DNA of 21,142 nt, from assembly GCA_035295825.1 (NCBI GenBank), contig DATGIG010000080.1, positions 1 through 21,142 of the forward strand. Reading direction: 5' to 3'. Origin of the DNA: Chthonomonadaceae bacterium. GTDB lineage: Bacteria; Armatimonadota; Chthonomonadetes; Chthonomonadales; Chthonomonadaceae. The position numbers and the translations under genes are program-made. Shown in pieces: positions 1,347 through 20,300 of the stretch (position 1 is its first letter; every line of letters begins with the position of its first letter). The notes under the pieces were generated by a model. The model was given only the letters and a program-made list of their open reading frames with translations, made no database searches and was not told the DNA's origin.

Positions 1347-1391
1347 CCGGATACCTATCCGGATACCTATATGGTAAACAGCGGGTATACC
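1347..1391. repeat. Perfect tandem 12-bp direct repeat CCGGATACCTAT x2 (1347-1358, 1359-1370) followed by palindrome GGTATACC (1384-1391), in the divergent NRPS / cytochrome-c intergenic region; candidate operator
   Basis: Read directly from the sequence. The ATACC/GGTAT half-site occurs three times within 45 bp. Confidence 0.35.
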
Positions 1392-1564
1392 TCAGAAATA
1401 CTTAGAGTTGCCTTAGAATTCCTGGCATGAGAACCCTTTAGCAGGCCAAACTCCTGAGGCAAGCTGTAGAGCGGGAGGGGGTCACCCAAAACCGTGCAAC
1501 AAAGGGAGAATCGTGCTATCATACTTAGAAGAGGCAAGACGGTAGGGTGAGGAGTGAGGGACGG

Positions 1565-4024
1565 ATGCAAAAGGTGCGACGAGAGAGCGTGGGGATCGTG
1601 CTGGGCGGCGCGCTGCTATGTGCGCTGGCCGGGTTTGCCGGAGGGCAGAACAAGCCCGCGCAACCGGAGACGGTGAGCTCGCAGGCTGCGGAGTTTTTTG
1701 AGAGCAAGGTGCGCCCGCTGCTGTTCGACAAGTGTTTTAGCTGTCATGGCGAAAAGATCCAGCAGGGCGGACTACGGTTGGATTCGCGGGATGCCATGCT
1801 CAAGGGCGGCGGGAGCGGCCCGGCGATGGTCGCCGGGGAGCCGGAGAAGAGCCGCCTGATTACCGCAGTACACTACGATACGGCCCTGAAGATGCCTCCG
1901 GGCGGGAAGCTGAAGGCGGACGAGATCGCCACGCTGACTGGTTGGGTCAAGATGGGCGCGCCCTGGCCCGGCGCCAAGCCGGCGGCGAAGGCCCCCACGG
2001 AGGAGAGCGCCATCGCTGAGGCGCAGCGCACGTTCTGGTCGTTCAAGCCGGTGAAGAAGGCCGCGCCGCCCACCGTCAAGAATAAGGCGTGGGGGAAGTC
2101 CCCCATCGATGCGTTCATTCTGGCGAAGCTGGAGGCGAAGGGCCTGCAGCCCGCACCCCCCGCCGACCGGCGCACCCTCATTCGCCGCGCCTACTTCGAC
2201 CTCATAGGCATGCCGCCGACGCCGGAAGAGGTGGACGCCTTTATCGCCGACAAGTCGCCGATCGCCTTCGCGACCGTGGTGGACAAACTGCTGGCGGACC
2301 CGCGCTACGGGGAGCGGTGGGGCCGGCACTGGCTCGACGTGGCCCGCTATGCAGACACCAAGGGCTATGTGTTCACCGAGGACGCGGTCTATCACAACGG
2401 CTATACCTATCGGGATTATGTTATCCGCGCCTTCAATGAGGACCTGCCCTACGATCAGTTTATCATCCAGCAGCTCGCCGCCGACCGCCTGTCGCTGGGC
2501 GACGACAAGCGCCCCCTGGCCGCACTGGGCTTCCTGAACATCGGGCGCCGCTTCCTCAACGATCCCGTTCTGATCAACGATGACCGCATCGACGTGACCA
2601 TGCGCGGAATGCAGGGCCTGACGGTTGCCTGCGCCCGCTGCCATAACCATAAGTTCGATCCGATCCCTTCGAAAGATTACTACTCGCTCTACGGTGTCTT
2701 CGCCAGCGCGGTCGAATCGAACCCGCCCGTGCCCATCTCGGCCAAGAATATCTCCGAGCCCTACGAGGCGCACAATTCCAAGGTGCTGGCGTTGGAAAAA
2801 GAGGGTACGGAACTCATCCAGGGGCAGATCACCCATATGCGCGGCATGGTCGAGAAAGACCCGAACGTGCTCTCCACGGAGGTGCGCGCGGTCCTGCAGA
2901 GCCTCCGCATCGGCCAGCAGCCCGACGAAGGGCAAATGAAGAAGTTGATGCCCGCCTTTGAGCCGGCGGCGCAGACCAGGCTCAAAGCGCTGCAGGGGAA
3001 CCTGACCGAACTAAAGCAGCATGTGCCGCCGACGCCGGAGTTCGCGCTGGCCTCCCAGGACACGCCCACGCCCTTCGATCCCTATGTCTTTCTGCGGGGC
3101 AACCCCGGCAACCATGGCGAGAGTGTGCCGCGCCGCTTCCTGGCCGTGCTGACCACCGGGGAGCGGAAACCCTTTCCCAATGGCGGCGGACGGCTGGACC
3201 TGGCGCAGGCCATCGCCAACAAGGACAACCCGCTCACAGCGCGGGTCTTCGTCAACCGGGTCTGGCTCTACCACTTCGGCAACGGTATCGTGCGCACTCC
3301 CTCCGACTTCGGCTTTCGGGGCGAACCGCCCACCCATCCCGAATTGCTGGACTGGCTGGCCGCGACGTTTATGGAGGAGAACTGGTCCATCAAGAAGCTG
3401 CAGAGGACTATCCTGCTATCCAGCACCTACCAGATGAGCAGCGACGTCAACCCCCACGCCTTCGCGCTCGATCCGGAGAACCGGCTGCTGGCGCACCAGA
3501 ACCGGCAGCGCCTGGATCTGGAGTCCCTGCGCGACTCCGTGCTCTATGTCGCCGGGCGGCTGGATACGAAGCTCGGCGGCCCCTCGGTCGAGTTGACCAC
3601 CGCGCCCTTCTCCACCCGCCGCACCGTCTACGGCTTTATCGATCGCCAGAACCTGCAGGGCATGTACCGCACCTTCGACCTCGCCAGCCCGGACACCAGC
3701 AGCGCCCAGCGCTTCCGCACCACCGTGCCGCAGCAGAGCCTCTTTATGATGAACAGCCCGTTTGTCGTGGAGCAGGCCCGTGCGCTGGCGAAACGCCCTG
3801 AGATCGCCTCGCAGACGGACGAAACGGCCCGGATACGAGCGCTCTACCGCCTGCTGTTCGACCGCACGCCCGAACCGGATGAGATCACCTTCGCCCGCCA
3901 TTTCCTGCGCGGCGTCGAAGAGGTGCACCCGGCCAACGCCCAGGCGACGTCCAAACTGCTCACCCCCTGGGAGGAGTACGTGCAGACGCTGCTGATGACC
4001 AACGAATTCGCCTTTGCGGATTAA
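1565..4024 (+). CDS. Secreted cytochrome-c domain protein with PSCyt1 (Planctomycete cytochrome C), PSCyt2 (DUF1549) and PSD1 (DUF1553) domains
   Basis: CFSCHG heme-binding CxxCH motif in the EFFESKVRPLLFDKCFSCHG...GGLRLDS...MPPGGKL region. DUF1549-like WGKSPIDAFILAKLEAKGLQPAPPADRRTLIRRAYFDLIGMPPTPEEVDAFIAD...YGERWGRHWLDVARYADTKGY. DUF1553-like C-terminus TRRTVYGFIDRQNL...FD..SPD....R..TTVPQQSLFMMNS. N-terminal signal peptide. The ATG at 1565 is preceded by GGAGTGAGGG; an in-frame GTG at 1547 is an alternative start. Confidence 0.85.
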   Translation: MQKVRRESVGIVLGGALLCALAGFAGGQNKPAQPETVSSQAAEFFESKVRPLLFDKCFSCHGEKIQQGGLRLDSRDAMLKGGGSGPAMVAGEPEKSRLITAVHYDTALKMPPGGKLKADEIATLTGWVKMGAPWPGAKPAAKAPTEESAIAEAQRTFWSFKPVKKAAPPTVKNKAWGKSPIDAFILAKLEAKGLQPAPPADRRTLIRRAYFDLIGMPPTPEEVDAFIADKSPIAFATVVDKLLADPRYGERWGRHWLDVARYADTKGYVFTEDAVYHNGYTYRDYVIRAFNEDLPYDQFIIQQLAADRLSLGDDKRPLAALGFLNIGRRFLNDPVLINDDRIDVTMRGMQGLTVACARCHNHKFDPIPSKDYYSLYGVFASAVESNPPVPISAKNISEPYEAHNSKVLALEKEGTELIQGQITHMRGMVEKDPNVLSTEVRAVLQSLRIGQQPDEGQMKKLMPAFEPAAQTRLKALQGNLTELKQHVPPTPEFALASQDTPTPFDPYVFLRGNPGNHGESVPRRFLAVLTTGERKPFPNGGGRLDLAQAIANKDNPLTARVFVNRVWLYHFGNGIVRTPSDFGFRGEPPTHPELLDWLAATFMEENWSIKKLQRTILLSSTYQMSSDVNPHAFALDPENRLLAHQNRQRLDLESLRDSVLYVAGRLDTKLGGPSVELTTAPFSTRRTVYGFIDRQNLQGMYRTFDLASPDTSSAQRFRTTVPQQSLFMMNSPFVVEQARALAKRPEIASQTDETARIRALYRLLFDRTPEPDEITFARHFLRGVEEVHPANAQATSKLLTPWEEYVQTLLMTNEFAFAD

Positions 4025-4230
4025 AGGGTGTGATGCGTTCGCCTTTGTGAAGGGATGGCTTGCGGTTTGGGCGAATCTATGCTAAACTTCTCTACGGTCG
4101 CATAGAGGCCCATTGCCTGCTTGCGCAGGCATGGCGTCGTCTATTTCCGGCAGGAGTTCGATGTGATGGAACTACGGCAAGGGCGCCGAAGTAGAAACCA
4201 CAAAGACTACAATTGAAGAGACGCCCGAAC

Positions 4231-5016
4231 GTGTTCAGCCGACTTCGTGAAGATATAGATACCGTGCTCGCCAAGGACCCGGCAGCGCGCAGCCGTTGGG
4301 AGGCCCTCACCTATCCCGGCATCCACGCGCTCTGGTTGCACTATGTCGCCCACTGGTTCTGGCTGCATCGGTGCAAATTGCTGGCGCGGATCATCTCGCA
4401 GTTCAGCCGGTTCCTGACGGGCATCGAGATCCACCCCGGCGCCACCATCGGACGCCGCTTCTTTATCGATCACGGCAACGGGGTCGTGATCGGCGAGACC
4501 ACCATTATCGGCGACGATGTGCTGCTGTACCACCAGGTGACCCTCGGAGGGACCAGCCTGGATAAGGTGAAGCGCCACCCGACGCTGGGCAACGGCGTCC
4601 TGGTGGGTATGGGCGCGAAGATACTAGGCCCCATCACCATCGGGGACTACTGTAAGATCGGTGCGAACGCCGTCGTCAATAAGGACATCCCTGCCGACTG
4701 TACCGTCGTCGGCATTCCGGGCCGCATCGTGCGCCGCAACGGCGAACGCTTCGAGGATGGCGGCGCTCAGGTCATGGACAACGTCATCAACCGTGTGGAT
4801 CCCCAGGATATTACCATCCGTGAAATGCGCCAGCGCCTGGAACTGCTGGAGCAGCACAATGAAAAATTGGAGCAACTGATCCAGCGCCTGGAGGAGCATG
4901 AAGGGCTGCACCATCGGAGCGAGAATGCGGAGTGGGACGCTCCCCTGCCGCAACATACGCCGCATGCCCTCGACGACGATTTCGTGGAGAACGATTACGA
5001 TAACCCGCCCGTATAG
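4231..5016 (+). CDS. cysE: Serine O-acetyltransferase (short, Bacillus-type CysE) with a C-terminal extension of about 60 aa
   Basis: [21 protein letters not shown]...[44 protein letters not shown]...[44 protein letters not shown], a left-handed beta-helix hexapeptide acyltransferase and near-colinear with B. subtilis CysE (MFFRMLKEDIDTV...). The start is taken as GTG 4231 (gives [20 protein letters not shown]); the ORF is also open from TTG 4213. Confidence 0.85.
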
Positions 5017-7728: not shown

Positions 7729-8822
7729 CACTCTTCTCTCGACGTTCCAGCGCAGGAGCGTCGTTCGGCCTCGCCCTGCTGGCCGGGCTGCTCGGCCTGT
7801 TGGTCCTGACAGGCTGCGATAGCAAGACGGAGGATAAGGGCGCGGAGGCGCCTCCTAAGACAGCAGAAGGCGATGCTAAGAGCAATCCCAAATCGTCCGC
7901 GCCGGAGTTGAATACCACCAGCACCGGCAAGAAGACGGTCGCCATTATCTCCCCTGCCAAGACCAGCGAGTTCCACAATGAGCTGCCCAAGGGGGCGGCG
8001 GAGGAGGCGAAGGCTGTGGGCTGGAACCCCATTATCGACCAGGCGCCCTCGAAAGAGGATGATTACGCCGGTCAGGTCGCGCTGGCGCAGAACATTGTCC
8101 AGCAGCACCCCGACGCCATCAGCGTGTGCGGCATCAACCCCCAGGCGCTCAACACCATCATCAAGAAGGCGAACGAGGCCAAGATCCCCATCTTCGTCCA
8201 CAACCAGATCACCAAGACCGAGGGCGACGTGGTCGCCTACATCGGTTACGATGAGCGCGAGGGCGGTAAGCTGTGCGGGCAGCAGATCGCGGAGCTTCTG
8301 AAGCAGAAGAACAGCGACTACAAGGGCAAAGTCGCCATTCTGGACGGCGAACCCGGCGACCACACCAACGAGCGGGCGGGCGGCTTTAAGGATGCCCTGA
8401 AGAAGTATCCCAATATCCAGATCGTCGCCGAACAGAACGGGAAGTGGGACCGCGCCGAGGGCAACAAGATCACCAAAGACTGGCTGCAAAAATATCCCGA
8501 CCTCGATGTGGTGTTCGGCTGCAGCGATGCGATGGCCCAGGGCGCGAGCAAGGCGGGCGCAGACGCACAGCATAAGCTCATCACCATCGGCATCGACGGC
8601 AACAGCACCGCCCTGCTGGATGTGGACGCAGGCAAATTGACCGCGACCCTGGCGGTACAGCCCAGGGCCATCGGGAAGAAGATCATCGACACCATGCAGG
8701 ACTACTTCGCCGACCCCAGCAAGGTTCCGGCGGGGACGGTCATCAAGACGGATATGAAAATTGTAACGAAGGAGAACGTACGCGATTTTGCGAACGAGAG
8801 CAAGAAAGGGAACGACCAATGA
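7725..8822 (+). CDS. Sugar ABC transporter substrate-binding lipoprotein (periplasmic binding protein type 1, RbsB-like)
   Basis: Lipoprotein signal with lipobox LLVLTGC. Body matches ribose/galactose-binding proteins (KKTVAIISPAKTSEFHNEL...IPIFVHNQ...GYDEREGGKLCGQQIAE...KVAILDGEPGDHTNERAGGFKDAL...). The ATG overlaps the permease stop (ATGA) and GGAGG sits at 7709-7713. Confidence 0.85.
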   Translation: MTLFSRRSSAGASFGLALLAGLLGLLVLTGCDSKTEDKGAEAPPKTAEGDAKSNPKSSAPELNTTSTGKKTVAIISPAKTSEFHNELPKGAAEEAKAVGWNPIIDQAPSKEDDYAGQVALAQNIVQQHPDAISVCGINPQALNTIIKKANEAKIPIFVHNQITKTEGDVVAYIGYDEREGGKLCGQQIAELLKQKNSDYKGKVAILDGEPGDHTNERAGGFKDALKKYPNIQIVAEQNGKWDRAEGNKITKDWLQKYPDLDVVFGCSDAMAQGASKAGADAQHKLITIGIDGNSTALLDVDAGKLTATLAVQPRAIGKKIIDTMQDYFADPSKVPAGTVIKTDMKIVTKENVRDFANESKKGNDQ

Positions 8823-10075
8823 CACAGATGACGGCGCGGCCGGGCGCATTCCGGTTGATTATCCGTGAGGGGGGACAAATTCGTGAGATGGGCGGCGACC
8901 TGACCGAAGCCGTCACCGCTGTAGACTTTATTATGCGCCAGGCGCTGGATCTGGGCGCTTCCGACATCCACCTGCAGCCGGAGCGCAACCGCCTGCTGGT
9001 GCGCTATCGCATCGATGGCGTGCTCCACGATGTGGGCCAGTATAGTCTGGAGATCGTTCCCAACATCACAGCCCGTTTGAAGCTGGCCGCTACGATGCAT
9101 ATCGACGAACGCCGCGAACCGCAGGACGGACGCCTGGATATGGAGTATGGCCCCCGCAAACTCAGCGCGCGTATGTCCTGCCTACCGATGCTGAACGGCG
9201 AGAAGATCGTTATGCGTCTGCTGGACCCGATGGGCGCCAAGGTGGAACTGGACAAGCTGGGGATGCCTAAAGACGTGCTGGATAAATGGCATAATGCCGT
9301 GCAGTCCTCCTACGGCATGGCGCTGGTCACCGGCCCGACCGGAAGCGGCAAGACCTCCACGCTCTACGCCTCCATCAATAAGCTGGATCGCACCAAGCGC
9401 AACATCGTGACGGTCGAGGACCCGGTCGAATACGAGTTCTCCGACCACATCACCCAGGTGCAGGTCACAGAGCGTCTCACCTTCGCCCGTACCATGCGCG
9501 CGTTCCTCCGCCAGGACCCGGACGTGATGCTCGTGGGAGAGATGCGCGACCCGGAGACGCTGGGCATCGGTATTCAGGCCAGCCTGACGGGTCACCTTGT
9601 CCTCAGCACCCTCCACACCAACAACGCCATCGAGACCCTGGGGCGTATGATCGACATGGGCGGCGAACCCTACCTGATCGCCTCCACCATACAGGCGATC
9701 ATGGCGCAGCGCCTGGTCCGCACCATCTGCAGCAAGTGCAAGACGCCCTACAAGCCCAATCCCGACGAACTGCTGGAGGTCGGCCTGCCGGTGGACCTGA
9801 TCGAAAAGCACACCTTCTACAAGGGCGCAGGCTGTACCGAATGCCGCAACACCGGCTACAAGGGACGCCTGGGCCTGTTCGAATGCCTCATCAGCACGCC
9901 GGAACTGCGCGAACTCATTGCACGCCGCGCGCCGATCTCCGACATCACCAACTACGTGCGCAACAAGCAGGGCATGCGGACCATGCTCGAAGACGGCTAT
10001 ACCAAGATCGCCGAGGGGCGCACGACCTGCCACGAGGTCTTTACCGCTGTCTACTCCACCATGTCCGTCGGCTAG
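8819..10075 (+). CDS. GspE/PilB-family secretion ATPase (type II secretion / type IV pilus assembly ATPase), minimal N2+CTD form
   Basis: Walker A GPTGSGKTST, Walker B/Asp box DPDVMLVGEMRD, His box LTGHLVLSTLHTNNA, tetracysteine Zn motif CSKCK...CTECRNTGYKGR, and N2-domain start ASDIHLQPE. The ATG overlaps the SBP stop (ATGA). Confidence 0.85.
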   Translation: MTQMTARPGAFRLIIREGGQIREMGGDLTEAVTAVDFIMRQALDLGASDIHLQPERNRLLVRYRIDGVLHDVGQYSLEIVPNITARLKLAATMHIDERREPQDGRLDMEYGPRKLSARMSCLPMLNGEKIVMRLLDPMGAKVELDKLGMPKDVLDKWHNAVQSSYGMALVTGPTGSGKTSTLYASINKLDRTKRNIVTVEDPVEYEFSDHITQVQVTERLTFARTMRAFLRQDPDVMLVGEMRDPETLGIGIQASLTGHLVLSTLHTNNAIETLGRMIDMGGEPYLIASTIQAIMAQRLVRTICSKCKTPYKPNPDELLEVGLPVDLIEKHTFYKGAGCTECRNTGYKGRLGLFECLISTPELRELIARRAPISDITNYVRNKQGMRTMLEDGYTKIAEGRTTCHEVFTAVYSTMSVG

Positions 10076-10087
10076 CTTTCCTCCTCT

Positions 10088-10122
10088 ATGTCTCCGCTCC
10101 CGGATGCTGGGAGCGGAGACAT
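10088..10122. terminator. 14-bp perfect hairpin (ATGTCTCCGCTCCC-ggatgct-GGGAGCGGAGACAT) between convergent genes; probable bidirectional intrinsic terminator
   Basis: Read from the sequence. Lies 12 nt after the gspE-like stop and about 100 nt after the stop of the minus-strand 1305-aa gene; followed by a T-rich stretch (ctattctaagtt). Confidence 0.5.
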
Positions 10123-10219
10123 CTATTCTAAGTTGTCTAAGGCGCTATAGTCAGGTTCAGAATGCTGTCCCTTCTCCAACCTCTCTTCAAGTCGCTTTTC
10201 ATTAAGTCTCTTCGTTTCT

Positions 10220-13200
10220 TCAAATCTCGTTTAAGTCTTCTGTTGGTTGTATCTCTACTATCGCTAGAGGTTGGTAAGCGGCCACGTTTGGAGATGCTGA
10301 TTCCTCAGAATCACTATCGAAGCGAAAGATTTTTTTTGCATCTCGCCCGGTAGCTTTGTCTCTAATAGATACCATAAGTAGATTGTTGGCATCTATATCG
10401 AATATCACTTCAAGCTGTGGGATACCACGAGGTGCAGGAGGGATTCCTTCCAAATACACTTCACCCAGGAACTTATTTGCTATGGCAATTTCCCGCTCGC
10501 CTTCGTAAATATTTACTGTAACAGAGATTTGGTTGTCTTCGGCAGTTGAGAAGACATCGCTCTTTCTAGTGGGAATACTTGTGTTACGCTCAATGAGCCT
10601 GGTGAATACGCCTCCCTGAGTTTCTATACCGAGGGAGAGAGAAGTTGCATCCAATAACAGATTCTTGAACTCCCCGCTGCCTGTACCTGTCAGAATGCCG
10701 GCCTCAAGGGCTGCACCCAGAGCAACGGCTTCATCGGGGTCAATTCCTCGTTTCGGTTCTTTCCCAAAAAAACGCCCTGCTGCTTCACGTACTAGCGGAA
10801 TCTTTGTGGATAGTCCAACCAGTACCAATTCATCTATATTTTGTATCTTTATTTTGGCATCCTCTATAGCGCGTTGGCAGCACTCCATAGTACGTTCGAC
10901 AAGGTCAGCGGTTAACTGCTCGAAGGTTGCACGGCTTAGGTCTACGTTCAGATGCTTGGCACCTTCTGCGTCTGCGGTGATATAGGGAACAGATATGGTG
11001 ACGATTTCCTGTCCGGAAAGCGCAATCTTGGCCCGTTCTGCGGCTTCCATCAAGCGGACCCGAGCCTCCTTGTCTTGAGATAGGTCAATGCCATTCTGTC
11101 GTTTGAATATTTCAATTATGTGATGCATAATTCGTGTATCGAAGTCCATTCCACCTAATCTGGTATCGCCATTGACTGACAGTATCTCACCGACAAAACC
11201 GCCATCTTCGGTATTCCCGGTATCTAACAACGAAATATCAAATGTACCGCCGCCCAGATCGTATACAGCTACCGTCCGGTCATACATATATCCTGCACTA
11301 TAGGCGAAGGATGCTGCCGTAGGTTCTGCGATTATTCGCAACACCTTCCAACCTGCCTGCTCGGCGGCGCGTTTTGTAGTTGCACTCTGAACACGATTAA
11401 AATAAGCTGGGACAGTGACAACAGCTTCGGAGATGGGACGCTCCAAATAACTTTCCGCATCCTGCTTCAAAAATGCGAAAATGTGAGCGGCTATTTCTTC
11501 GGGAGTGTATAGCCTGTCATAAATTTTGATTTTATCCGAACTCCCTAATAGTCTCTTGATGGCAAATACGGTTCCCTCAGCATTGATCTGGGCTTGCAGC
11601 AAAGCGGAAGCACCTACCGTCACTTCGCCGTCCCTGGTAAAGGCCACAACGGAAGGCGTTAGTTTGATTCCTTCCCGGTTAGGAATGATGATCGGCTTAC
11701 CGTTCCGCACCACGGCAATCAGAGACGACGTTGTGCCGAAGTCGATGCCTACTGCGGAACTGGTATTCCACAGCGAGCGTTCCTCCCAATCAGGATCGGT
11801 GATCTGTTCGACAATGTCTTGGTCAGGTCTTCCTTCTTCCTTTTGGCTTAACATCTTTCGGATTATTTGCTGATGATAGGCAGGAAGGCGTTTCAGAGCG
11901 CGGTCTAATTCTGCGATTGCTCCTAGTTTGTGCAGTGCAATTGCAGCATATCTGGAAATCTTCGTACGGTCGTCTGCAACATAATCTGCATATGATGGAA
12001 TAAGCTGATCGCCTAGACTGCTCGCTATTGCCTCCCATTCGGATAAGAAATCCACAAAAACGAGACTGCGGAAGAGCAGTTTCCGAGCAGAGTTCGAGAT
12101 AGTCAAGTCTCTCCAATAAGAACAGATATCCTTTAACTTCTCCTTTGTAATCAACTGTTGGTAGCGAGGCCAGTATTGAACCTCCATATCCAGCAGGTCC
12201 TGTGCTTCTTTTATTTTAATCTCACGCTCGGAGAGCCATTTCCATATTTCAGTGACGATATACTCATGCACGACCTCATAACGGTAGCCAGCCTCTGTCT
12301 CGATACGCCGTAATAGGTGATGATCTATCAGTTCCGTGAGGATATTTTCGATATATGGTAAACCTTGCCTCAGTGCCGTGGCAATCTCCACCTTGGATAA
12401 CAGGTTCTTTGTTTGACGAATGGTTACCAGAGATTGCAGGATTCTCTTTGCTGTTGCCCGTCGTGTATGGCTGAACTTCTCCAGTACCTGCATCAGATAG
12501 TTGCCAAGGATTTCTCTGGCTCCGCCCATGGCGCGGTAGTGGTCTATAGTGATGATGGTATCCTTCGCATGTTCCTGGTACAACCTGTAACAGACAATCT
12601 GAAGCTGTGCGGGCGCGATGCTTCCGGCGTAGCGTAGCTCTTCCAAGATTTGATCCACCAACCCCTCTTGATATTGGATGCCGAAGGGTTCCAATGGACG
12701 CGTAATTGCCTCTCTTGCTCCCTCCTTCGATAGATTATTTAAACGCTCGACATAGAAATAGGGCTGCCGAAAATGCTTTTTCATGCCTTCCAGTTCAACC
12801 AAAAAATCGTCCCGAAGAGACAAAACGAGATGTAGGTCAATACGTTGTGATTGTAAACACTGTACCAACGCTCTGGTTAGTTCTTGTTGTAGGTTCTCTT
12901 CTAATCGAAATACTTCTTCGAACTGGTCTATGAAGAGAATGACGGTCTTCCCCGTCCGCTGCTGTACACGCAGAAGCAACTTCAGCAGTCGCTCGTCTCC
13001 TCTTTCCTCCACATCGAGCGCACCGCTATATTCCGCTTCCACCGCATCGGCAATATCTTTTTCAATCGCGTTGAGCGGAGCATCCAGGCAACGACTATAG
13101 ATAGGAAAACAGTTCAATTTTGTCAGTGCAGGAATCAAGCCGGCCTTAATGCAGGACGTTTTACCCACTCCGGAACTGCCGACCAGTATCTGCAGGCGAC

Positions 13201-14137
13201 GTGTCAGAATCACCTTGCTCAAGACACTGATTTCCTGTTGCCGACCGAAGAACTGATCGCTCTGATTCGTTTCAAAATAGTCCAGAAAACGATAAGGAGA
13301 ATGGGGACGGTTGGCTATCCTATTTGTACTGATCTTCGGGGTAGTAGCCTCATAGCGTGCGAGTTGTTGCTCCAGAATCTGGAAAAATCGGAAAGGATCT
13401 TCGGAGTGAATTTTGATGTTTTCCAGCTTCCAATCATCCTTATCTTCCGGACGAGCATGAGGCTGCACAGCATATACCCTACGAGGAAACCGAGTTGTTC
13501 CCGATCCGATTTGGCGATAAAGGAATTTCCAATACACATCGTTCAGATCGTAGCCGCAAAAAAGAAGCGTTCGTGTTGCACATAAGTAGCGAATCCATTC
13601 GCACAGATAAGAGCGCTTCTGTGGGAAATCCAGGCAGTCATTCTCTGTCAGAACCAGAGAATCCCGTTGATCCGTGCTACCATACGCCTGGATGAGCGTT
13701 GTTCGCTGGCTATCGACAAAGGTAACCATGTCATCGCGAACCACATAAATCAGCGGTTTCTGTGCGCGGTCATAGGCTTCTTTTAGCCGCATATCAATAC
13801 GCGTGGTGATGATAACTGGAAAGGGAAGACGGGGAATGATAAGATCAAGAGGGTTAGGAACCTTGCTTTGAGCTTCTGTCCAACTGCAGACACGCTCAAT
13901 CAGGCGATGCGTCCCCATTTTTTGCTCATAACGCTTTGCTACAAGGGGAAATTTGCGCTCGATCTCCACTCCCGACATTTCCGAGAGCAGTTCAGCCATC
14001 AATTGCTCTTCAAATGCTCCTTCTCCTGATGGTGCGACACCTGCCCCAACAAAAAGAATACAGTTTCCGCGCGCAAGCTGCTCGATCAGTTCGTGAAGGT
14101 CGAAATCGGAAGATAAGTCATTCGTTTGGCGATTCAT
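10220..14137 (-). CDS. Large tripartite fusion protein (1305 aa): N-terminal SIR2-like domain (SIR2_2 family, catalytic Asn/His replaced), central nSTAND-type P-loop NTPase with winged-helix/helical region, C-terminal Hsp70 (DnaK-like NBD + SBD-beta, no alpha-helical lid)
   Basis: aa 15-260: [14 protein letters not shown]...[13 protein letters not shown]...LIQAYGS, paralogous to the upstream SIR2 gene. aa 275-640: [27 protein letters not shown]...[22 protein letters not shown] (Walker A), [13 protein letters not shown] (Walker B), [30 protein letters not shown] (conserved post-WH motif of nSTAND NTPases). aa 794-1270: [120 protein letters not shown]...[34 protein letters not shown], i.e. a canonical Hsp70 NBD and beta-sandwich. 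The gene ends about 35 aa after the SBD-beta. AT-rich codon usage differs from the flanks. Confidence 0.85.
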
Positions 14138-14275
14138 CGTTGTATTTTCCTGAAGATGCAGAATTTGAAATCCATTCTCCCTGTTCGCTTTCGAATGTAA
14201 TCTCTTGTCTGCAACAGTGTATGATTAACCAGGGAGCTATAATGGAACTATAGCATCCGACGCCTATCCTCTAGC

Positions 14276-15031
14276 TTATAACTGGACTTTTATCGCTTCC
14301 AGAAATGTGTAAGCGTCGGCGTCAAGAACCTGCACGTTCTTCTGTTGCCAGTACTTGATGGCGAAGCGAGAGGGGTTAAGTTGCACCGCATAGGCGCGTC
14401 GGATATGACGTCCAAGATGACGCACAACTTCATGATAAAGGCGTCGAAAATCTTCATCCATTAGCCCGAAGCCAAGAAACAGAACCGTTTGTGTGGCAAA
14501 GTAAGCGCGCACCAAATTGGTTGTTTCAGGCAAGCGGGCAAAAACATCATAATAGTCATCACCCAGGACGACAATTGTATCTTGCTGCTCAATGGAACCA
14601 TGCAATTTGATGAGTAGCCTCTTATTTTGATTGATAAAAGCGACTTCGGTATCACGCACAACGCGGTCGACGGGAATCTGGGCTTGGCGCAAAGCTTCTT
14701 CCAATAGGTTGTCCCAGTTCGTTGTAATGATGCGCTGAAAAGGTAGCTCCGCAATCATGTGATGTGCCGGCAGAGGCTGGATTTGTGGTGTGTTGATCCG
14801 GCTGGTGATGTATTGAAGGAGACTGTGAAGTCCCATTTCGAGGACATAGCCTTGGGCAACCTCTGGCAGAGGCATACAAGTAATATTTCCTAATTGTGCA
14901 CGCTGGGCGAGTTCTGAGGCTAATTGTCCTCCGCTCGGCAATCCTCCTGGTGACAAAGAGATACCTGCTCCGCAAAACAGGACACTATTGTTATTGCGGA
15001 TCTGTTCCAGTAACTCACTCGGTATATTCAT
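14276..15031 (-). CDS. Standalone SIR2-like protein (SIR2_2 / DHS-like NAD-binding family, catalytic Asn and His present); first gene of the SIR2 / SIR2-STAND-Hsp70 operon
   Basis: VLFCGAGISLSPGGLPSGGQLASELA (Rossmann GAG loop), RIITTNWDNLLEEA (conserved TTNxD with catalytic Asn), LIKLHGS (catalytic His), VLFLGFGLMDEDF. Aligns residue-for-residue with aa 15-260 of the downstream fusion protein. A 138-bp gap separates it from the next gene on the same strand. Confidence 0.8.
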   Translation of the reverse strand: MNIPSELLEQIRNNNSVLFCGAGISLSPGGLPSGGQLASELAQRAQLGNITCMPLPEVAQGYVLEMGLHSLLQYITSRINTPQIQPLPAHHMIAELPFQRIITTNWDNLLEEALRQAQIPVDRVVRDTEVAFINQNKRLLIKLHGSIEQQDTIVVLGDDYYDVFARLPETTNLVRAYFATQTVLFLGFGLMDEDFRRLYHEVVRHLGRHIRRAYAVQLNPSRFAIKYWQQKNVQVLDADAYTFLEAIKVQL

Positions 15032-15352
15032 ACGCGATGGTTCATCCTCTATCCATTTGTTATTGCTTTATCATCGAGGTTGGGTTATCCTACTTCAAAC
15101 CGATAGGATTTTGTGCCTCTCTTCAAATTGGACGTGACTATTTCCAGGTCATGTAGCTCCTCGAATACAAGTTCCAACAAGTAATTAGCGATTGTTCGCT
15201 TGTGTTCCTCCTAAAATTGGTAAATTCTCTGTGCCATTTGGTTTTCCGTGAAAGATGCCACTTTGGCATTCTGGTCGCAGTCCGATTGGCCGAAGATCTA
15301 AAAGACGGGGCGTTCACTGCAGGGCTAATTTTGCTCATAGAGCACTAGATTG

Positions 15353-15412
15353 TAATCGTTTTGGAATGAGGTACTATAAAAATAATCGTTTTGGAATAGG
15401 AGTAATCGTTTT
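15353..15412. repeat. Three direct repeats of TAATCGTTTTGGAAT (15353-15367, 15383-15397; third partial copy TAATCGTTTT 15403-15412) immediately upstream of, and abutting, the fic start codon, within the divergent SIR2-operon/fic promoter region
   Basis: Read from the sequence, with 30-bp and 20-bp spacing. TACTATAAAAAT (-10-like) lies between copies 1 and 2. Confidence 0.45.
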
Positions 15413-15415
15413 AGC

Positions 15416-16924
15416 ATGGCTTCCGTCTTTCTTAATGAAGCACGCACTCCGGTCGGGCAAATCGCACTCCACGGGACACTCAATCTCATGATACCGTCCC
15501 CAGTCGTGCAGAGTTTTGTTGTTGCCGGCGCTAGACGCACACGGGAGACGGAGACATACATTGAGGAGTATTATCCCTCGCACTACAATACCGATGGGAC
15601 CTTGATTGAAAATCTCCGGTTCGCTCTGAAACACGAGCCGCTTGACCTACGTGTGGTCTCCGCAGCATTGGAAGCGATAGGGGAGGATGCTCTCACTGCC
15701 TGGGTTCGCACGGAACCTACAGGCGCTTTCAGCCGTCGCGCCTGGTTCTTCTATGAAACCCTGATCGGGCGAACCCTCGATCTCGAAGCCGTAAAAGCGG
15801 GCAACTATGTGGATGCACTGGACGAACGACGTCACTTTGTCGCCGCTCCGATCAATTCCAGCCGGCATCGGGTCCGCGATAATCTGCTTGGCACACGTGA
15901 TCTGTGTCCTGTCGTGCGACGCACTCCAAAGTTGGAGGCAATGATCGCTGCGCACCTGGATGCGGAAGCACGGGCAATGGCAGCGCACTACTCCCCGGAG
16001 ACCCTGGCTCGCGCGGTGAACTTTCTCTACACTAAGGAGACGCGCTCCTCTTTTGCCATAGAAGGGGAAGCGCCCAGTCGGAATAGGGAGGAAAGGTTTC
16101 TTCAGGCGCTACAAGCTGTATCCACTTTCGATCCTGCCGACAAAAACGCCCTGATTCGTTTGCAGGGTAGTATTGTAGACCCTCGCTATGCAGCTCACGG
16201 TTGGCGCGACTTTCAGAACTTCGTCGGTGAGACCACACGGCGCTTTGGAGAGTATGTGCATTTTATCTGCCCGCGCCCGGAAGATATATCGTCTCTGATG
16301 GAGGGTTGGATGGCACTAACGGAACGCCTCCTGATAAGCCCCCTCGATCCGGTAATCGCGGCAGCGGTCAGCGCCTTTGCATTCGTCTTCCTACATCCGT
16401 TCGAGGATGGCAATGGGCGCATTCATCGCTTCCTGATCCACTATATACTCTCCAAACGAGGCTTTAGTCCGCCCGGAGTGATCTTTCCTGTGAGTGCGGC
16501 CATCCTGCGTCAACGCCATCTGTACGATAAGACCCTGGAAGCGTTCTCAAAGCCTATTATGGCCGCTATCGAATGGGACTTCGTGGAAGAGAATGCCCTT
16601 CAAGTACAGAACGACACATGTAACCTTTATCGCTTCTTCGATGCCACCCCGCAGGCGGAATATCTTTATGAGAGGGTTGCAGAGACCATTCGCGTGGATT
16701 TCAAAGAGGAGTTGGACTTCCTGGAAGTCTACGATGCGGCGTTTACAGCGGTGCGTGAGATCGTAGATATGCCGGACCGGCGTGCTTCGCTTCTCGTGCG
16801 CCTCTGCCTGCAAAATGGCGGGCGGCTTTCGCAAAACAAACGTAAGCAATTTGTAGAACTGACGGACGAAGAGATAAACCAGATAGAGGCAGCGATCCTA
16901 CGGGTACTGCGACAAGAGTTGTAA
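15416..16924 (+). CDS. Fic-family protein (AMPylase-type, Fic motif HPFEDGNGRIHR) with an N-terminal auto-inhibitory helix motif SFAIEG
   Basis: FVFLHPFEDGNGRIHRFLIHYIL matches HPFx(D/E)GNGR. TRSSFAIEGEAPS upstream matches the (S/T)xxxE(G/N) inhibitory motif of class II Fic proteins. ATG 15416 with AGGAG 13 nt upstream. Confidence 0.85.
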   Translation: MASVFLNEARTPVGQIALHGTLNLMIPSPVVQSFVVAGARRTRETETYIEEYYPSHYNTDGTLIENLRFALKHEPLDLRVVSAALEAIGEDALTAWVRTEPTGAFSRRAWFFYETLIGRTLDLEAVKAGNYVDALDERRHFVAAPINSSRHRVRDNLLGTRDLCPVVRRTPKLEAMIAAHLDAEARAMAAHYSPETLARAVNFLYTKETRSSFAIEGEAPSRNREERFLQALQAVSTFDPADKNALIRLQGSIVDPRYAAHGWRDFQNFVGETTRRFGEYVHFICPRPEDISSLMEGWMALTERLLISPLDPVIAAAVSAFAFVFLHPFEDGNGRIHRFLIHYILSKRGFSPPGVIFPVSAAILRQRHLYDKTLEAFSKPIMAAIEWDFVEENALQVQNDTCNLYRFFDATPQAEYLYERVAETIRVDFKEELDFLEVYDAAFTAVREIVDMPDRRASLLVRLCLQNGGRLSQNKRKQFVELTDEEINQIEAAILRVLRQEL

Positions 16925-17023
16925 CAAGTCAACCGTTGTCCCTGCTATAGATACTTTCGCCGAGCGTGCAATGCATTCTGTTGCAAATAGCGGAATGTTT
17001 GCAAGAAATAACGTTTTTCCCCC

Positions 17024-17052: not shown

Positions 17053-17109
17053 AGAAGGGTGTCTGTTTGCAACCAGCGAAGTTTGCAAGCGAAGGAGGTC
17101 GTACCTACG

Positions 17110-17940
17110 ATGCATGTCGAGACACTTCTGCAATGGCACTACCTGATCTTTCTGTTACCTCTGGCGGTCGGAGCGCTGCTCCTGCTGCTCTCCTCCCTCC
17201 GTATGGGCCACCATGGCGGGCATCACGGCGTTCATGGAGGTCACGGCCCTGCCCATGCTCCCGCTGCGCCCCATGTACCCCATGGTCACGCAGTCGTACA
17301 TGCCCCCGCGCACGCTCCGGCGACGCCGCATGGCCATGCCCCGGCGCACTCCGCGCCGACGCCCGCCCATCATGCGCCCGCGCATACGCCGGTCAAGCAT
17401 GCGCCTGCCACGGATGCCAAAGCGCAGGCCGCAAAGACGACGGATTCCCGCCCGAATGTCTCTGTGACCACGCATTTTGTGCTGAACCTGACCGGCGCGA
17501 ACCGTGCGCCCCTGGTGATGATCCTGGAGGCGTTCCTGGTGCTGTGGGGGATCGTCGGGCTATGGGCCGACCGCCTGATGCTCCACTCGGATCAGCCCAC
17601 CACGCGAGAGACGCTGGCAGTTCTGGGCGTCGCCCTCGTCGGAGGGGCCATCGGAGCGCGGATCGCGGCGGCGATCCTGGCCCGCGTGCTGCCCCAGGAG
17701 GAGACGCTGGTGGTCTCCCGCAACGCCTTGTTCGGCCTGACCGGCAAGATCACCTACCCGGTCAGCCAGACCAGCGGGCGCATCCACGTCTACGATCAGC
17801 ACGGCACGCTGCATGACGAGATGTGCCGCATCTCTCCGGAGCATCTGCCTATCGAGAAGGGACGCCGGGCCATGGTGCTGGATATGGACGCAAAGGGTCT
17901 TCTCATCGTCGAGGAGATCCCCGATTCTACCACGCGCTGA
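17110..17940 (+). CDS. NfeD-family membrane protein (YuaF-like; C-terminal OB-fold) with an inserted His/Ala/Pro-rich low-complexity region of about 100 aa
   Basis: TM helices (YLIFLLPLAVGALLLLL; PLVMILEAFLVLWGIVGLWA; LAVLGVALVGGAIGARIAAAIL), then C-terminal GKITYPVSQTSGRIHVYDQHGTLHDEMCRISPEHLPIEKGRRAMVLDMDAKGLLIVEE, typical of the NfeD OB-fold. Precedes a flotillin gene as in yuaF-yuaG. RBS GAAGGAGG 17091-17098. An in-frame upstream start at 17059 is less likely. Confidence 0.75.
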   Translation: MHVETLLQWHYLIFLLPLAVGALLLLLSSLRMGHHGGHHGVHGGHGPAHAPAAPHVPHGHAVVHAPAHAPATPHGHAPAHSAPTPAHHAPAHTPVKHAPATDAKAQAAKTTDSRPNVSVTTHFVLNLTGANRAPLVMILEAFLVLWGIVGLWADRLMLHSDQPTTRETLAVLGVALVGGAIGARIAAAILARVLPQEETLVVSRNALFGLTGKITYPVSQTSGRIHVYDQHGTLHDEMCRISPEHLPIEKGRRAMVLDMDAKGLLIVEEIPDSTTR

Positions 17941-17990
17941 GCCGCAACGACGCGGCTCGGCCTCTGTTACCGCTGAAGGAGGCGGAAAAA

Positions 17991-20102
17991 ATGGGATTCA
18001 TAGCGATACTGTTGGGACTGGCGCTGATCTTCCTGGGGACGCTGGGCAAAATGTTCGGGATTCCTCTGACTACCGGAACCAGCATCCTTATGACGGTCTT
18101 CGGTCTGCTCATAACCGGCGTGGGCCTGGTGATGACCTACTTCGGGTTCTATCGCCGCACCAGCGCCGACCAGGCGTTTGTACGTACCGGGATGGGCGGC
18201 AGCAAGGTGGTGCTGGATGGCGGCACAATGGTGTGGCCGTTCTTCCATAACGTGCTGGAGATCAACCTCAAGACGATGAAGCTGGGGGTGAACCCGCGCG
18301 GCCAGAACGCTTTGATCACCCGCGACAATCTGCGCGCGAACGTCCTGGCGCAGTTCTATATCCGGGTTCAGGCCGATGAGGAGCATATCTTGAACGCCGC
18401 CCGCTCGCTGGGGCAGAGCAGCGTGAATGCGGAGGCGGTCGAAGCCCTGGTCAGTGAGAAGCTGGTGTCCGCCCTCCGCGCCATCGCCTCCCAGATGGAC
18501 CTGTTCGAGATCCACACCAAGCGCGATGAGTTCGCCGAGCGGGTCAAGGAGCATGTGAAGACCGACCTGGAATCCAATGGTCTGCTGCTGGAATCCGTGA
18601 CGATTTCGGAGCTGGACCAGACCGATCCGGGCGAACTCTCCGACAACAACGTCTTCGATGCCCAGGGCAAGCGCAAGATCACCGAGATCACCGCGGCGGC
18701 GGCGGTGGAGCGCAACCAATTGGAGCGTGGGGCCGAATACGCCCGCAAACTCAAGGATGTCGAGACGCGCCAGCAGATACTCGAACTGGATCGTAAGCAG
18801 GCGGAGGCCGAGGCGCAGCAGGCGACCGAGATCGCCAAGGTGAAGGCGGACAAGGAGCGCGAGTCGCAGGAGGCGCAGATCACCCAGCAGCGGCAGATCG
18901 AACTGGCGAAGATCGAGAAAGAGAAGCAGATCCAGGCGCAGGAGATCGCCCGCCAGCAGTCCGTCGAGGTCGCCCGTGCCCAGCAGGAGCAGGCGGTACA
19001 GACCGCGCAGGTGGCGAAGGAGCAGGCCATCCAGACGGCCCAGATCGCCAAGGACCAGCAGGTCCAGATGGCGACGGTGGAGCGCGAAAAGAGCGTCTCC
19101 CTGGCGGAGCGGCAGAAGGAGATCGCCGTTGCCGACCAGGAGGCGGCACGCGCCAAGGCGGAAGAGGCCGCGCTGCGCGCCTCCGCCGAGCGCGAGAAGG
19201 CCGGTCAGCAGGTGACCACGGTGACGCAGCTTGCCGAGGCCGAGCGCGAGGCGAACAAGAAGCTGATCGCCGCCCGCCAGCAGATCGAGCAGGACAAACT
19301 GCGCCAGCAGACTACCGCCGATGTGGATGCCTATACGCGCGTCAAGCAGGCGGAATCGGAGCAGGAGGCGGCGACCAAGCAGGCCGAAGCCCGACGTCAG
19401 TTGGCCGAAGCGGAAGCAGGGGCGAGGGAGATGGTGGCGCGGGGCGAGAAGGCGCAGCAGATGGTCACGGTGGACGTCGCCCGCGAGCAGGTGAATGTGG
19501 AGCAGGCGAAGGTCGCGGTCGAGCGGCAGCAGTTGGAGAACCGCCAGGAGTTCGCCGAGGCCGGTATCCAGTTGGAAGTGCAGCGCCTGAGCATCCAGGC
19601 CAGTCGCGACGTGCAGATCGAGTTCGCCCGCGCCCTGGCGAACTTCCTCGCCAGCGGTCACATGACCCTCTACGGCACGCCCGAAACGGCGACGACAATG
19701 CTGGACAACATGGCGAAGGGCTTCGGCTTCCGCTCCATGATCGAGGGCTTCGTCAATGGCCCGCAGGGGAACGTGGGGATGAGCGGAAACGGGCCTAGCG
19801 GCAATGGCAGCCTGCCCGCTGTGGTAAAGGGCAACGGGAGCGACACGGTAAGCGGCCTGCTCTCCCAGATCGGCGGACTGCTGCAGCCCGCCATCGCGAA
19901 GGTAACGGGCGGCAGTCCCGCCAGCGTGACGCCGGAGTTGGCGGAGCAGGTGGCGCGGCAACTGGCGGAGAACCCCGCCTTCCTGACCGCCCTTCAAGAC
20001 GCCCTGACCCAGCCCGCGCCTGTACCGAAGGAGGCCGTGGTCGTAGACTCCACGCCGAAAGCCGAGAAACCGAAGGTCAGCGCCAACAACTCCAAAGCCT
20101 GA
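17991..20102 (+). CDS. Flotillin-like SPFH/band-7 protein (FloT/YuaG-like) with a long Ala/Glu/Gln-rich coiled-coil region
   Basis: N-terminal membrane hairpin, SPFH domain (QAFVRTGMGGSKVVLDGGTMVWPFFHNVLEINLKTMKLGV...ITRDNLRANVLAQFYIRV), then extended EA/AQ-rich flotillin coiled coil and C-terminal tail. RBS GAAGGAGG 17974-17981. Confidence 0.85.
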   Translation: MGFIAILLGLALIFLGTLGKMFGIPLTTGTSILMTVFGLLITGVGLVMTYFGFYRRTSADQAFVRTGMGGSKVVLDGGTMVWPFFHNVLEINLKTMKLGVNPRGQNALITRDNLRANVLAQFYIRVQADEEHILNAARSLGQSSVNAEAVEALVSEKLVSALRAIASQMDLFEIHTKRDEFAERVKEHVKTDLESNGLLLESVTISELDQTDPGELSDNNVFDAQGKRKITEITAAAAVERNQLERGAEYARKLKDVETRQQILELDRKQAEAEAQQATEIAKVKADKERESQEAQITQQRQIELAKIEKEKQIQAQEIARQQSVEVARAQQEQAVQTAQVAKEQAIQTAQIAKDQQVQMATVEREKSVSLAERQKEIAVADQEAARAKAEEAALRASAEREKAGQQVTTVTQLAEAEREANKKLIAARQQIEQDKLRQQTTADVDAYTRVKQAESEQEAATKQAEARRQLAEAEAGAREMVARGEKAQQMVTVDVAREQVNVEQAKVAVERQQLENRQEFAEAGIQLEVQRLSIQASRDVQIEFARALANFLASGHMTLYGTPETATTMLDNMAKGFGFRSMIEGFVNGPQGNVGMSGNGPSGNGSLPAVVKGNGSDTVSGLLSQIGGLLQPAIAKVTGGSPASVTPELAEQVARQLAENPAFLTALQDALTQPAPVPKEAVVVDSTPKAEKPKVSANNSKA

Positions 20103-20246: not shown

Positions 20247-20300
20247 CTGCTTAGAAGCGGATTGGTCATTTATGCAAGCGGAGCAAGATTAGGGGGATCC

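Follow-up and report, generated by a model that had tools for sequence, protein, structure and literature searches.

A lid-less Hsp70 module on a SIR2-nSTAND1 protein of a Chthonomonadaceae bacterium: putative trigger of a two-gene defence system

The stretch of DNA analysed here, referred to as the window, comprises 21,142 nucleotides from a Chthonomonadaceae bacterium of the phylum Armatimonadota (assembly GCA_035295825.1, contig DATGIG010000080.1, positions 1 to 21,142 of the forward strand). On its minus strand, at positions 10220..14137, a gene recognised by its open reading frame (ORF), translation and Pfam matches encodes a protein of 1305 amino acids, in which a SIR2-like domain, an nSTAND1 NTPase, a helical region and an Hsp70 module without a lid follow one another. 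We lean, tentatively, towards interpreting this gene and the SIR2 gene directly upstream of it as a two-gene, NLR-like (STAND) abortive-infection system, whose trigger would be the Hsp70 module. An initial annotation had already proposed a surveillance role for the Hsp70 part, and a sensor is indeed the role that the sequence evidence appears to support best. Its description of this part as a nucleotide-binding domain (NBD), a linker and a substrate-binding beta-sandwich (SBD-beta) without lid, placed as the C-terminal module of a STAND NTPase, agrees with Pfam, with alignment to PDB structures and with an AlphaFold2 (AF2) model.

Results

A search of 5.8 billion proteins returned one identical entry, NCBI HLK55480.1 (P0001), which is annotated as 'Hsp70 family protein' and derives from a Chthonomonadaceae metagenome-assembled genome (MAG). 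All of its domains are encoded on the minus strand. The N-terminal SIR2-like domain (residues ~12-260; 13358..14104) is matched by Pfam SIR2_2 at residues 108-237, while alignment with partners and relatives reaches back to about residue 12. The nSTAND1 NTPase (residues 281-637; 12227..13297; PF20703, E-value 4.7e-53) scores 181.6 bits against a curated cut-off of 27.1 and comprises a P-loop (Walker A) GSSGVGKTS at 13154-13180 and a Walker B motif at 12914-12940; GSSGVGKTS and DQFEE are invariant across the family alignment A3. Between NTPase and Hsp70 lies an all-helical repeat region (residues 640-787; 11777..12220), which was recognised from the AF2 secondary structure at a predicted local distance difference test (pLDDT) of ~85-90 and for which no Pfam family was found, even at an E-value of 10. 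The NBD (residues 792-1153; 10679..11764) is supported by Pfam, PDB match, AF2 and clade membership. It is followed by the interdomain linker (residues 1154-1160; 10658..10678), placed by alignment and of low pLDDT in the model, and by the eight-stranded SBD-beta (residues 1161-1272; 10322..10657), placed by alignment and AF2. An acidic, disordered C-terminal tail (residues 1273-1305; 10223..10321), delimited by the end of the Pfam match and a pLDDT <50, stands in place of the alpha-helical lid. The protein has the tripartite STAND layout of N-terminal SIR2-like domain, central nSTAND1 and C-terminal helical region plus Hsp70. Its closest Hsp70-less relatives (P0012, P0016) carry C-terminal HEAT repeats, other nSTAND1 proteins WD40 or TPR repeats.

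The Hsp70 module is matched by the Pfam HSP70 profile at residues 795-1270 (E-value 1.8e-161), and the coordinates initially assigned to it, 10328-11758, correspond to residues 794-1270. Employing phmmer against the PDB gave E-values of 1e-142 for Escherichia coli DnaK (2KHO) and 3e-142 for Mycobacterium tuberculosis DnaK. In a multiple alignment the module shares 48% of its residues with E. coli DnaK, compared to 51-55% with other DnaKs; BLASTP gives values of up to 59%. The NBD of the module is devoid of the ~24-residue insert of proteobacterial DnaK. The catalytic motifs quoted by the initial annotation are all present, each aligned to the DnaK residue that had been named: D799 corresponds to D8, K861 to K70, E938 to E171 and D960/T965/D967 to D194/T199/D201. 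D8, K70, E171, D194, T199 and D201 are unchanged both in the window protein and in its nine relatives of full length, and R167, D393, L390-392, P419 and the cleft residues are kept across the family. The predicted LLLD linker was found as well, as part of NLLLD (residues 1159-1163; 10649-10663), whose DnaK counterpart is VLLLD. Four residues of the substrate cleft had been singled out as a check, three of which (F426, A429, V436) are identical to DnaK, while the fourth is changed (M404Q). Over the whole cleft, I401, T403, F426, A429, Q433 and V436 are identical and I438V, I472L and M404Q are changed; the conserved hydrophobic residues include F1196, A1199 and V1206 of the window protein.

The claim that the protein ends about 35 residues behind the SBD-beta and thus lacks the lid holds: the profile match covers positions 1-495 of 599 and the tail is disordered. 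An AF2 model of residues 640-1305 (pLDDT 84, predicted template modelling score 0.78) shows the helical region, the NBD, a complete eight-stranded SBD-beta and the tail, with the final 33 residues disordered and zero lid helices. This model superposes on the ATP-state, domain-docked DnaK structures 4B9Q and 5NRO with a root mean square deviation of ~3.1 Å over ~503 columns, whereas the ADP-state structure 2KHO gave 15.9 Å and no superposition. Two family members point to the origin of this lid-less state. The fragmentary P0121 retains the beginning of lid helix A, while P0006 (L010 627-4793, from a Ca. Obscuribacterales MAG) carries a charged, helical-looking C-terminal extension of ~110 residues beyond the SBD-beta. 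MAFFT aligns this extension with the DnaK lid, and it may be either a lid remnant or a re-invented lid. Given these two proteins, the lid seems to have been lost by truncation of a full DnaK-type protein. ATPase competence of the module is plausible from its residues, while its nucleotide handling is probably altered.

This alteration is suggested by the NBD. A profile of the family's Hsp70 modules was run against 1.84 billion representative proteins and the best 150 matches were looked at, many of which combine an extension at the N-terminus with an Hsp70 at the C-terminus. Pfam was applied to 20 of these, 17 of which turned out to be fusions, among them caspase-Hsp70 (n=5), TIR-Hsp70 (n=3), Ser/Thr-kinase-Hsp70 (n=4), PNP-kinase-Hsp70 and HD-CE-Hsp70 proteins. 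In 15 of the 17 the Hsp70 part stops at HSP70 profile positions 494-530, which is the boundary of the window protein itself. Fusions in which a TIR, caspase, Ser/Thr kinase, HD-CE or PNP domain precedes a lid-less Hsp70 at the C-terminus are P0254, P0255, P0268, P0272, P0275, P0280, P0302, P0317, P0320, P0335, P0365 and P0366. Since the NBD signature VGLST(K/R) is present in only some effector-Hsp70 fusions, Hsp70 was apparently recruited to effector proteins several times independently.

To place the module, neighbour-joining trees with 200 bootstrap replicates were calculated separately for NBD and SBD-beta, together with 20 DnaKs. With 100% bootstrap support, the NBDs of the STAND family and of the HD-CE-, TIR- and PNP-kinase-Hsp70 proteins with VGLST(K/R) form one clade, with the window protein inside and all 20 DnaKs outside. 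Consistently, the ten best BLASTP matches of the window NBD are all family members. The 13 modules of this immune clade retain the catalytic residues, R167, L391 and P419. However, in all or nearly all of them K55 is replaced by L, V or A, R56 by L or A (K in one), G342 by L, R345 by K and N170 by A, and P293 is changed as well, while the canonical residues at these positions are kept in 20 of 20 DnaKs compared. The window protein itself shows K55L, R56L, N170A, P293A, G342L (L1109) and R345K (K1112). Taking the salt bridges K55-E267 and R56-E264, the adenosine motif GG(S/Q)TR and N170 together, it does not possess a DnaK-type nucleotide cleft. Consequently, the description of the module as 'otherwise canonical' stands for the catalytic residues and fails for K55, R56, G342, R345, N170 and P293. 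In DnaK, the K55-E267 and R56-E264 salt bridges close the nucleotide cleft (PMC8215388), and HscA, which lacks them, releases ADP 700-fold faster and independently of GrpE (Mayer 2021, PMC8215388). Because both salt bridges are lost here as in HscA, nucleotide exchange of the module is probably altered and would likely be fast and GrpE-independent.

The SBD-beta tells a different story. A DnaK of 625 amino acids with lid (P0122; HLK55662.1; L012 6001-7878), followed by an HSP20 gene, almost certainly originates from the same MAG as the window protein, judged by accession, taxon label and matching GC content. This DnaK is the top-scoring one for the module among the 5.8 billion proteins (576 bits, against at most 537 for others). 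It is also the best BLASTP match of the window SBD-beta among ~390 Hsp70s, with 75.5% identity over 106 residues, whereas the next DnaK reaches 69.8%, and none of the 14 best matches is a family member. In 90% of the neighbour-joining replicates the window SBD-beta pairs with P0122. Moreover, all 30 sites that are common to the window protein and its family, yet not to DnaKs, fall into the NBD. The other members' SBD-betas are 70-82% identical to ordinary DnaKs, as close to these as to each other or closer, so that this domain carries little family signal and no family signature; a search with the SBD of Ca. Viridilinea gave only short fragments. From these sequence comparisons the module appears to be chimeric, its SBD-beta having a history that differs from that of the NBD. 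The separation from the host DnaK, which the initial annotation had suggested to examine by phylogeny, is thus found for the NBD, which groups with the immune clade, and not for the SBD-beta.

A second resemblance to the host DnaK lies within the NBD. The insertion TEDGG (residues 976-980; 11198..11212, minus strand) was found by Hsp70 alignment in a beta-hairpin of subdomain IIa, behind DLGGGTFD, and occurs in two of 131 Hsp70s examined, namely the window module and P0122. Even so, the initial annotation was right to rule out a fragment of the host dnaK: protein identity to P0122 is 55-59%, and the GC content at third codon positions (GC3) is 0.45 compared to 0.86 in the P0122 gene (overall GC 0.636). 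In a codon-aligned comparison with this gene, nucleotide identity ranges from 0.46 to 0.74, while third-position identity remains at ~0.3 throughout, the TEDGG patch included. These values, together with the difference in GC3, exclude that the module was recently converted by the host dnaK in this genome: at the nucleotide level, nothing points to an exchange. As synonymous sites are saturated, TEDGG may stem from an old domain exchange, from mimicry or from chance. In Hsp70 complexes, helix II of the J-domain of DnaJ touches the IIa beta-sheet and helix III the SBD-beta, and the interface residues co-evolve between the partners (PMC7289447, PMC8215388). By offset from the Ssq1 numbering, the TEDGG loop would lie in the IIa sheet. 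If so, the two host-like patches, TEDGG hairpin and SBD-beta, would be surfaces that a host J-domain protein touches.

The architecture is rare. Within 5.8 billion proteins, the family comprises ~13 clusters of the same architecture from independent assemblies. Nine full-length or nearly full-length homologues are 48-51% identical to the window protein and share its three Pfam domains; in addition, there is a split copy in Ca. Viridilinea mediisalina, and a second search added two N-terminally truncated members. The named genomes fall into three phyla, with the window representing Armatimonadota, Viridilinea and the MAG of an uncultured Chloroflexia bacterium representing Chloroflexota, and Ca. 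Obscuribacterales representing Cyanobacteriota. This distribution is patchy, and the family is horizontally transferred. As the fusion is spread over three phyla and its NBD belongs to a specialised, fully supported clade, the SIR2-nSTAND1-Hsp70 combination is old, and the earlier notion of a recently captured module is wrong. The statement that the module matches its island in composition proved correct: the Hsp70 part has a GC content of 0.477 and a GC3 of 0.445, the remainder of the gene 0.476 and 0.495, while GC3 of the flanking housekeeping genes is 0.78-0.85. An assembly chimera, named beforehand as a possible pitfall, is ruled out by this uniform composition over the STAND/Hsp70 junction and by the same junction in the ~13 independent homologues.

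The Viridilinea member (L003 10001-13882) is split within the Hsp70 NBD into ORFs of 906 and 372 amino acids, which is probably due to a frameshift or reflects a pseudogene. At this locus, both its own SIR2 and the SIR2-CHAT partner lack the catalytic Asn and His, and the locus is ringed by PIN, ParE and other toxin-antitoxin genes.

The putative output of the system was analysed by mapping the catalytic positions of SIR2 domains to DSR2 N133/H171 and KomC H146. The SIR2-like domain of the window STAND protein reads TTRID (13793-13807) instead of the TTN(Y/W)D of SIR2 NADases, and QAYGS (13676-13690) instead of KLHGS, so that Asn is replaced by Arg and His by Tyr. At the Asn position, Arg is found in P0001-P0010 and Ser in P0011. 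We predict from these residues that the domain is catalytically dead, and propose that it serves as an adaptor for the partner SIR2. This partner, a stand-alone SIR2 of 251 amino acids, is encoded directly upstream of the STAND gene on the same, minus strand (14276..15031; Pfam SIR2_2, E-value 3e-30) and has an intact GAG motif, Asn105 and His144. PADLOC recognises it as ThsA-type SIR2 (E-value 3e-29). Against the PDB it matches KomC (E-value 1e-15), DSR2 (1e-14) and ThsA (9e-14), whose catalytic residues line up with N105 and H144, and it is predicted to be the NADase effector. Partner and STAND SIR2 are paralogues (33% identity, E-value 2e-39).

SIR2_2 genes adjoin the homologues as well, in the form of PNP_UDP_1-SIR2 (two loci), TIR-SIR2, SIR2-CHAT and, in Obscuribacterales, stand-alone SIR2. 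Where the partner carries another effector, the SIR2 His is replaced by Gly, Cys or Tyr, and in the case of P0006 the SIR2 partner is located downstream, not upstream. Most simply, these sequences can be read as paired SIR2 domains working as homotypic adaptors, with the partner supplying the enzyme. Further neighbours of the homologues are SIR2-NACHT-HEAT, NERD-UvrD, DruE/DrmA-like helicase and BrxL genes, which gives their surroundings a defence-island-like appearance. The STAND SIR2 without catalytic Asn and His, the enzymatic effector on a partner gene and the distinct history of the SBD-beta are additions to the initial annotation.

Two observations from homologue loci stand apart. P0008 and P0009 are each followed, at a distance of no more than ~10 nucleotides, by a gene (L002 14013-19415, L005 3988-9375) for a DEAD + Helicase_C + MZB (DUF1998) protein of ~1800 amino acids, which resembles DruE/DrmA-type defence helicases. 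In L018, from an Anaerolineales MAG (1197-4938, 7890-11114), an Hsp70-less SIR2-nSTAND1 relative lies ~3 kb downstream of an apparent housekeeping grpE-dnaK-dnaJ operon. The operon was called from ORF sizes and a 48% Hsp70 match, and the proximity is probably coincidence.

Within the window, the system resides in a low-GC island at ~10100-17000 (GC 0.46-0.50, GC3 0.45-0.58, against a background of 0.60-0.66 and 0.78-0.85). Housekeeping genes flank it, with a T2SSE/PilB-like ATPase encoded on one side (8819-10075) and an SPFH/Band 7 protein on the other (17823-20102). Neither tRNA, integrase nor notable flanking direct repeats were found in the window at the island borders. Promoter-like sites are about as frequent as expected by chance (7 against 6.6); terminator-like sites exceed expectation (11 against 4.9 ± 2.5), yet lie mostly within coding sequence and mark no gene or island border. 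The window contains neither McrBC genes nor an EACC1-like neighbour.

Divergent to the SIR2 partner gene and adjoining it in the same island, a gene for a Fic-domain protein of 502 amino acids with the motif HPFEDGNGR was detected on the plus strand (15416-16924), matched almost end to end by the PADLOC candidate PDC-S24 (E-value 4e-185). The metazoan Fic protein FICD AMPylates the Hsp70 BiP, and AMPylated BiP is among the fold-search matches of the module model. A functional link between Fic and Hsp70 by this analogy was not adopted, and since no Fic gene adjoins any homologue, we regard the Fic gene as a separate defence gene. At 15352-15418, upstream of and overlapping the Fic start, a 17-nucleotide direct repeat (GTAATCGTTTTGGAATG and variants) is present three times with spacings of 30 and 20 nucleotides, and may form an operator-like array. 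No Pfam family matches a plus-strand ORF of 293 amino acids (17059-17940), whose long N-terminal half is of low complexity and rich in His, Ala and Pro (HGGHHGVHGGHGPAHAPAAPH...). This ORF is located directly upstream of the SPFH/Band 7 gene and overlaps it, a position usually held by NfeD-like partners. Finally, a second low-GC stretch at the window edge (20262-20926, plus strand) encodes 93 amino acids and, with an overlap of 4 nucleotides, a PIN-domain protein of 128 amino acids, likely a toxin-antitoxin pair.

Discussion

How could such a protein work? In the reading that we tentatively prefer, the Hsp70 module would take the place of the HEAT, WD40 or TPR repeat sensors of other STANDs and act as the trigger. 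At rest, the ATP-bound, domain-docked Hsp70 would help to hold the NTPase closed. During infection, abundant or chaperone-dependent phage proteins would enter the open, lid-less cleft, probably passed on by the host's own J-domain protein. ATP hydrolysis would then undock the SBD-beta from the NBD, and this large movement could free nSTAND1 for oligomerisation. The clustered, dead SIR2-like N-termini would recruit and activate the intact SIR2 partner through SIR2-SIR2 contacts, NAD+ would be destroyed and the infected cell would no longer support the phage. Lacking both the lid and the K55/R56 salt bridges, the module would sample substrates fast and exchange nucleotides without GrpE, as expected of a sensor and not of a folding machine. 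The best precedent for such chaperone-linked sensing appears to be bNACHT25, which cannot sense phages without host DnaJ and its interaction with DnaK (PMC12169576).

However, several points weigh against this reading. Only the window protein has Ser at the position of R151, which belongs to the allosteric relay of DnaK, and G342L in the adenosine motif could damage nucleotide binding instead of tuning it. An invariant Arg in place of the SIR2 Asn could also be the mark of a changed activity, and not of a lost one. No recognisable SIR2 partner was found at the loci of P0008 and P0009, and the proposed effector logic is therefore not universal. Neither a J-domain nor a GrpE gene is linked to the family at the homologue loci examined, and the matching of the SBD to the host is seen in one genome only. 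In the literature, we found no experimental report on phage protection by this family, and PADLOC has no model for the STAND protein, delivering only SIR2-level ThsA matches and two weak PDC matches; NCBIfam gives no system-level assignment for it either.

Four alternatives were considered. In the first, which we regard as possible but unlikely, the module is an integrated decoy: it would mimic the host DnaK as bait, and phage proteins that hijack or inhibit DnaK, rather than client load, would fire the NTPase. Such bait could be bound by DnaK inhibitors, by J-domain proteins of phages or by replication proteins such as those of the lambda P type. Phages do depend on DnaK/DnaJ (PMC8215388, PMC12169576), and the module is still 52-59% identical to housekeeping DnaKs. 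The SBD-betas of the family, close to ordinary DnaKs and without a family signature, would suit this idea, as would the pairing of the window SBD with the DnaK of the same MAG, the TEDGG common to both and the top score of this DnaK for the module. In contrast, a decoy need not preserve its catalytic residues, yet all are invariant here; the clade-specific NBD changes set the module apart from the host DnaK, a trace of exchange with the host gene is absent at the DNA level, and the host-matching is a single case. The decoy overlaps with the Hsp70 trigger and is not exclusive of it, and it is the host-like SBD that favours it. Both could be combined in a decoy of the host's DnaK, in which a specialised, GrpE-independent ATPase engine carries client and J-domain surfaces matched to the resident DnaK, and in which the lid-less Hsp70 is a general immune sensor. 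We also consider this combination unlikely. If it were true, phage proteins that use host DnaK/DnaJ, or the DnaJ carrying them, could not avoid the receptor, and the lid-less Hsp70 would be a general sensor module on TIR, caspase, kinase, HD-CE, PNP and STAND outputs.

Alternatively, and in our view rather improbably, the Hsp70 could be a built-in chaperone that sets a threshold, either by restraining the NTPase or effector or by assembling or disassembling the oligomer, while the helical region or the winged-helix part of the NTPase does the sensing. Hsp70s assemble or disassemble other complexes, as known for clathrin and sigma-32. Chaperone/co-chaperone pairs, some of them including HSP70, have been proposed to act in this way in bacterial conflict systems (PMC7159879, PMC8195603). 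The well-folded helical domain at residues 640-787 in front of the Hsp70, as well as the intact ATPase and allosteric residues, would suit such active remodelling. However, this helical region is short (~150 residues) compared to usual repeat sensors, many TIR- and caspase-Hsp70 fusions have neither another candidate sensor nor an NTPase to regulate, and removal of the lid weakens stable client holding (PMC8215388).

It is improbable that the system is not antiviral at all and that severe folding stress, caused by heat, oxidants or antibiotics, leads to NAD+ depletion and dormancy or death. The generic, DnaK-like cleft would allow this, and the possibility was raised in the sole published remark on lid-less DnaK-like immune fusions (PMC12642450). 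However, a combination of SIR2_2, STAND, TIR, CHAT and PNP domains with neighbours typical of defence islands usually marks phage defence, and the family is patchy and horizontally transferred, with a low-GC island in the window and ~13 clusters among 5.8 billion proteins. Finally, we consider it highly improbable that the module senses phage or aberrant RNA like the Hsp70-like units of CoCoNuT systems, because its catalytic motifs are intact: the precedent proposed for CnuD (PMC11090510) was based on degenerate catalytic motifs, while here catalytic and cleft residues are kept at 50-59% DnaK identity.

Taken together, a built-in Hsp70 sensor offers a direct and testable model that wires protein-folding surveillance to immune cell death. 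The parts involved are defined, and 30 years of DnaK biochemistry supply suitable point mutants. Since five or more other types of effector carry the same truncated Hsp70, sensing by chaperones may be a general principle of prokaryotic immunity that is almost unstudied. In addition, the pairing of a pseudo-SIR2 with a SIR2 effector points to SIR2 domains as possible homotypic adaptors, similar to Death-fold or TIR domains.

Comparison with known systems

Bacterial NLR-like proteins recognise phage proteins by bespoke repeat or fold-matching sensors. We found no description of a SIR2-nSTAND1-Hsp70 architecture in the literature: the main text of a 2026 survey of prokaryotic STANDs mentions neither Hsp70 nor DnaK, and the architecture is likewise absent from the papers in which nSTAND1 was defined. 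Three earlier publications have noted modules of the Hsp70 family in conflict systems (PMC7159879, PMC11090510 and PMC12642450, the last being closest). As far as we searched, four features are new, namely the specialised NBD clade and the residues that mark it, the range of effectors fused to Hsp70, the SBD resembling that of the host, and the adaptor arrangement of SIR2 with SIR2.

Avs5 (SIR2-STAND; EfAvs5, PMC11897194) shares with the window protein an N-terminal SIR2, a central STAND NTPase and a C-terminal sensor, and its oligomerisation-driven NAD+ depletion is the output that we would expect. However, the NTPase of the window protein belongs to the nSTAND1 clade and matches no PADLOC Avs model, its SIR2 is devoid of the catalytic Asn and His while the active enzyme is predicted on a partner gene, and its sensor would be an Hsp70 instead of a repeat or bespoke fold. 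The likewise NLR-like bNACHT25 (PMC12169576) senses phages through DnaK/DnaJ, and a guard-type logic has been proposed for it. It has no Hsp70 domain of its own and works in trans with chaperones of the host, whereas the window protein carries the Hsp70 within the receptor polypeptide; furthermore, bNACHT25 was tested experimentally, while the window system is known from sequence alone.

Among Hsp70 modules, those of EACC1-associated caspase-like proteases (bioRxiv 2025, PMC12642450) are most similar, since a lid-less DnaK-like module ~50% identical to DnaK is likewise found on an immune effector. These DnaK-like domains were proposed, without experiments, to sense misfolded proteins or infection stress (PMC12642450). 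However, the protease fusions possess no STAND NTPase, SIR2 or partner-adaptor logic, and the window protein in turn has no protease domain. Hsp70-family modules, sometimes with HEAT-like repeats, also occur in CoCoNuT systems (CnuD/CnuCD, PMC11090510) and in GTPase-centric conflict systems, where HSP70 is found with GTPases and tubulin (PMC7159879). The former are divergent, with degenerate catalytic motifs and an association with McrB/McrC, while the latter are separate genes with GrpE and DnaJ partners; neither is attached to a STAND NTPase or SIR2.

The module agrees with housekeeping DnaK (E. coli P0A6Y8; 2KHO, 4B9Q, 5NRO) in having an NBD, a hydrophobic linker and an SBD-beta, and in the catalytic and allosteric residues and those of the cleft. 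In contrast to DnaK, it lacks the SBD-alpha lid and the conserved C-terminal tail and is embedded in an immune-type protein of 1305 amino acids. Plant NLRs with integrated domains (NLR-IDs), such as RRS1-WRKY and RGA5-HMA, contain the copy of a host protein on which pathogens depend or which they attack. The window protein resembles them in its integrated, close copy of a host protein, as its SBD-beta is nearest to the host's own DnaK. However, its module keeps the full enzymatic equipment that is often lost in decoys.

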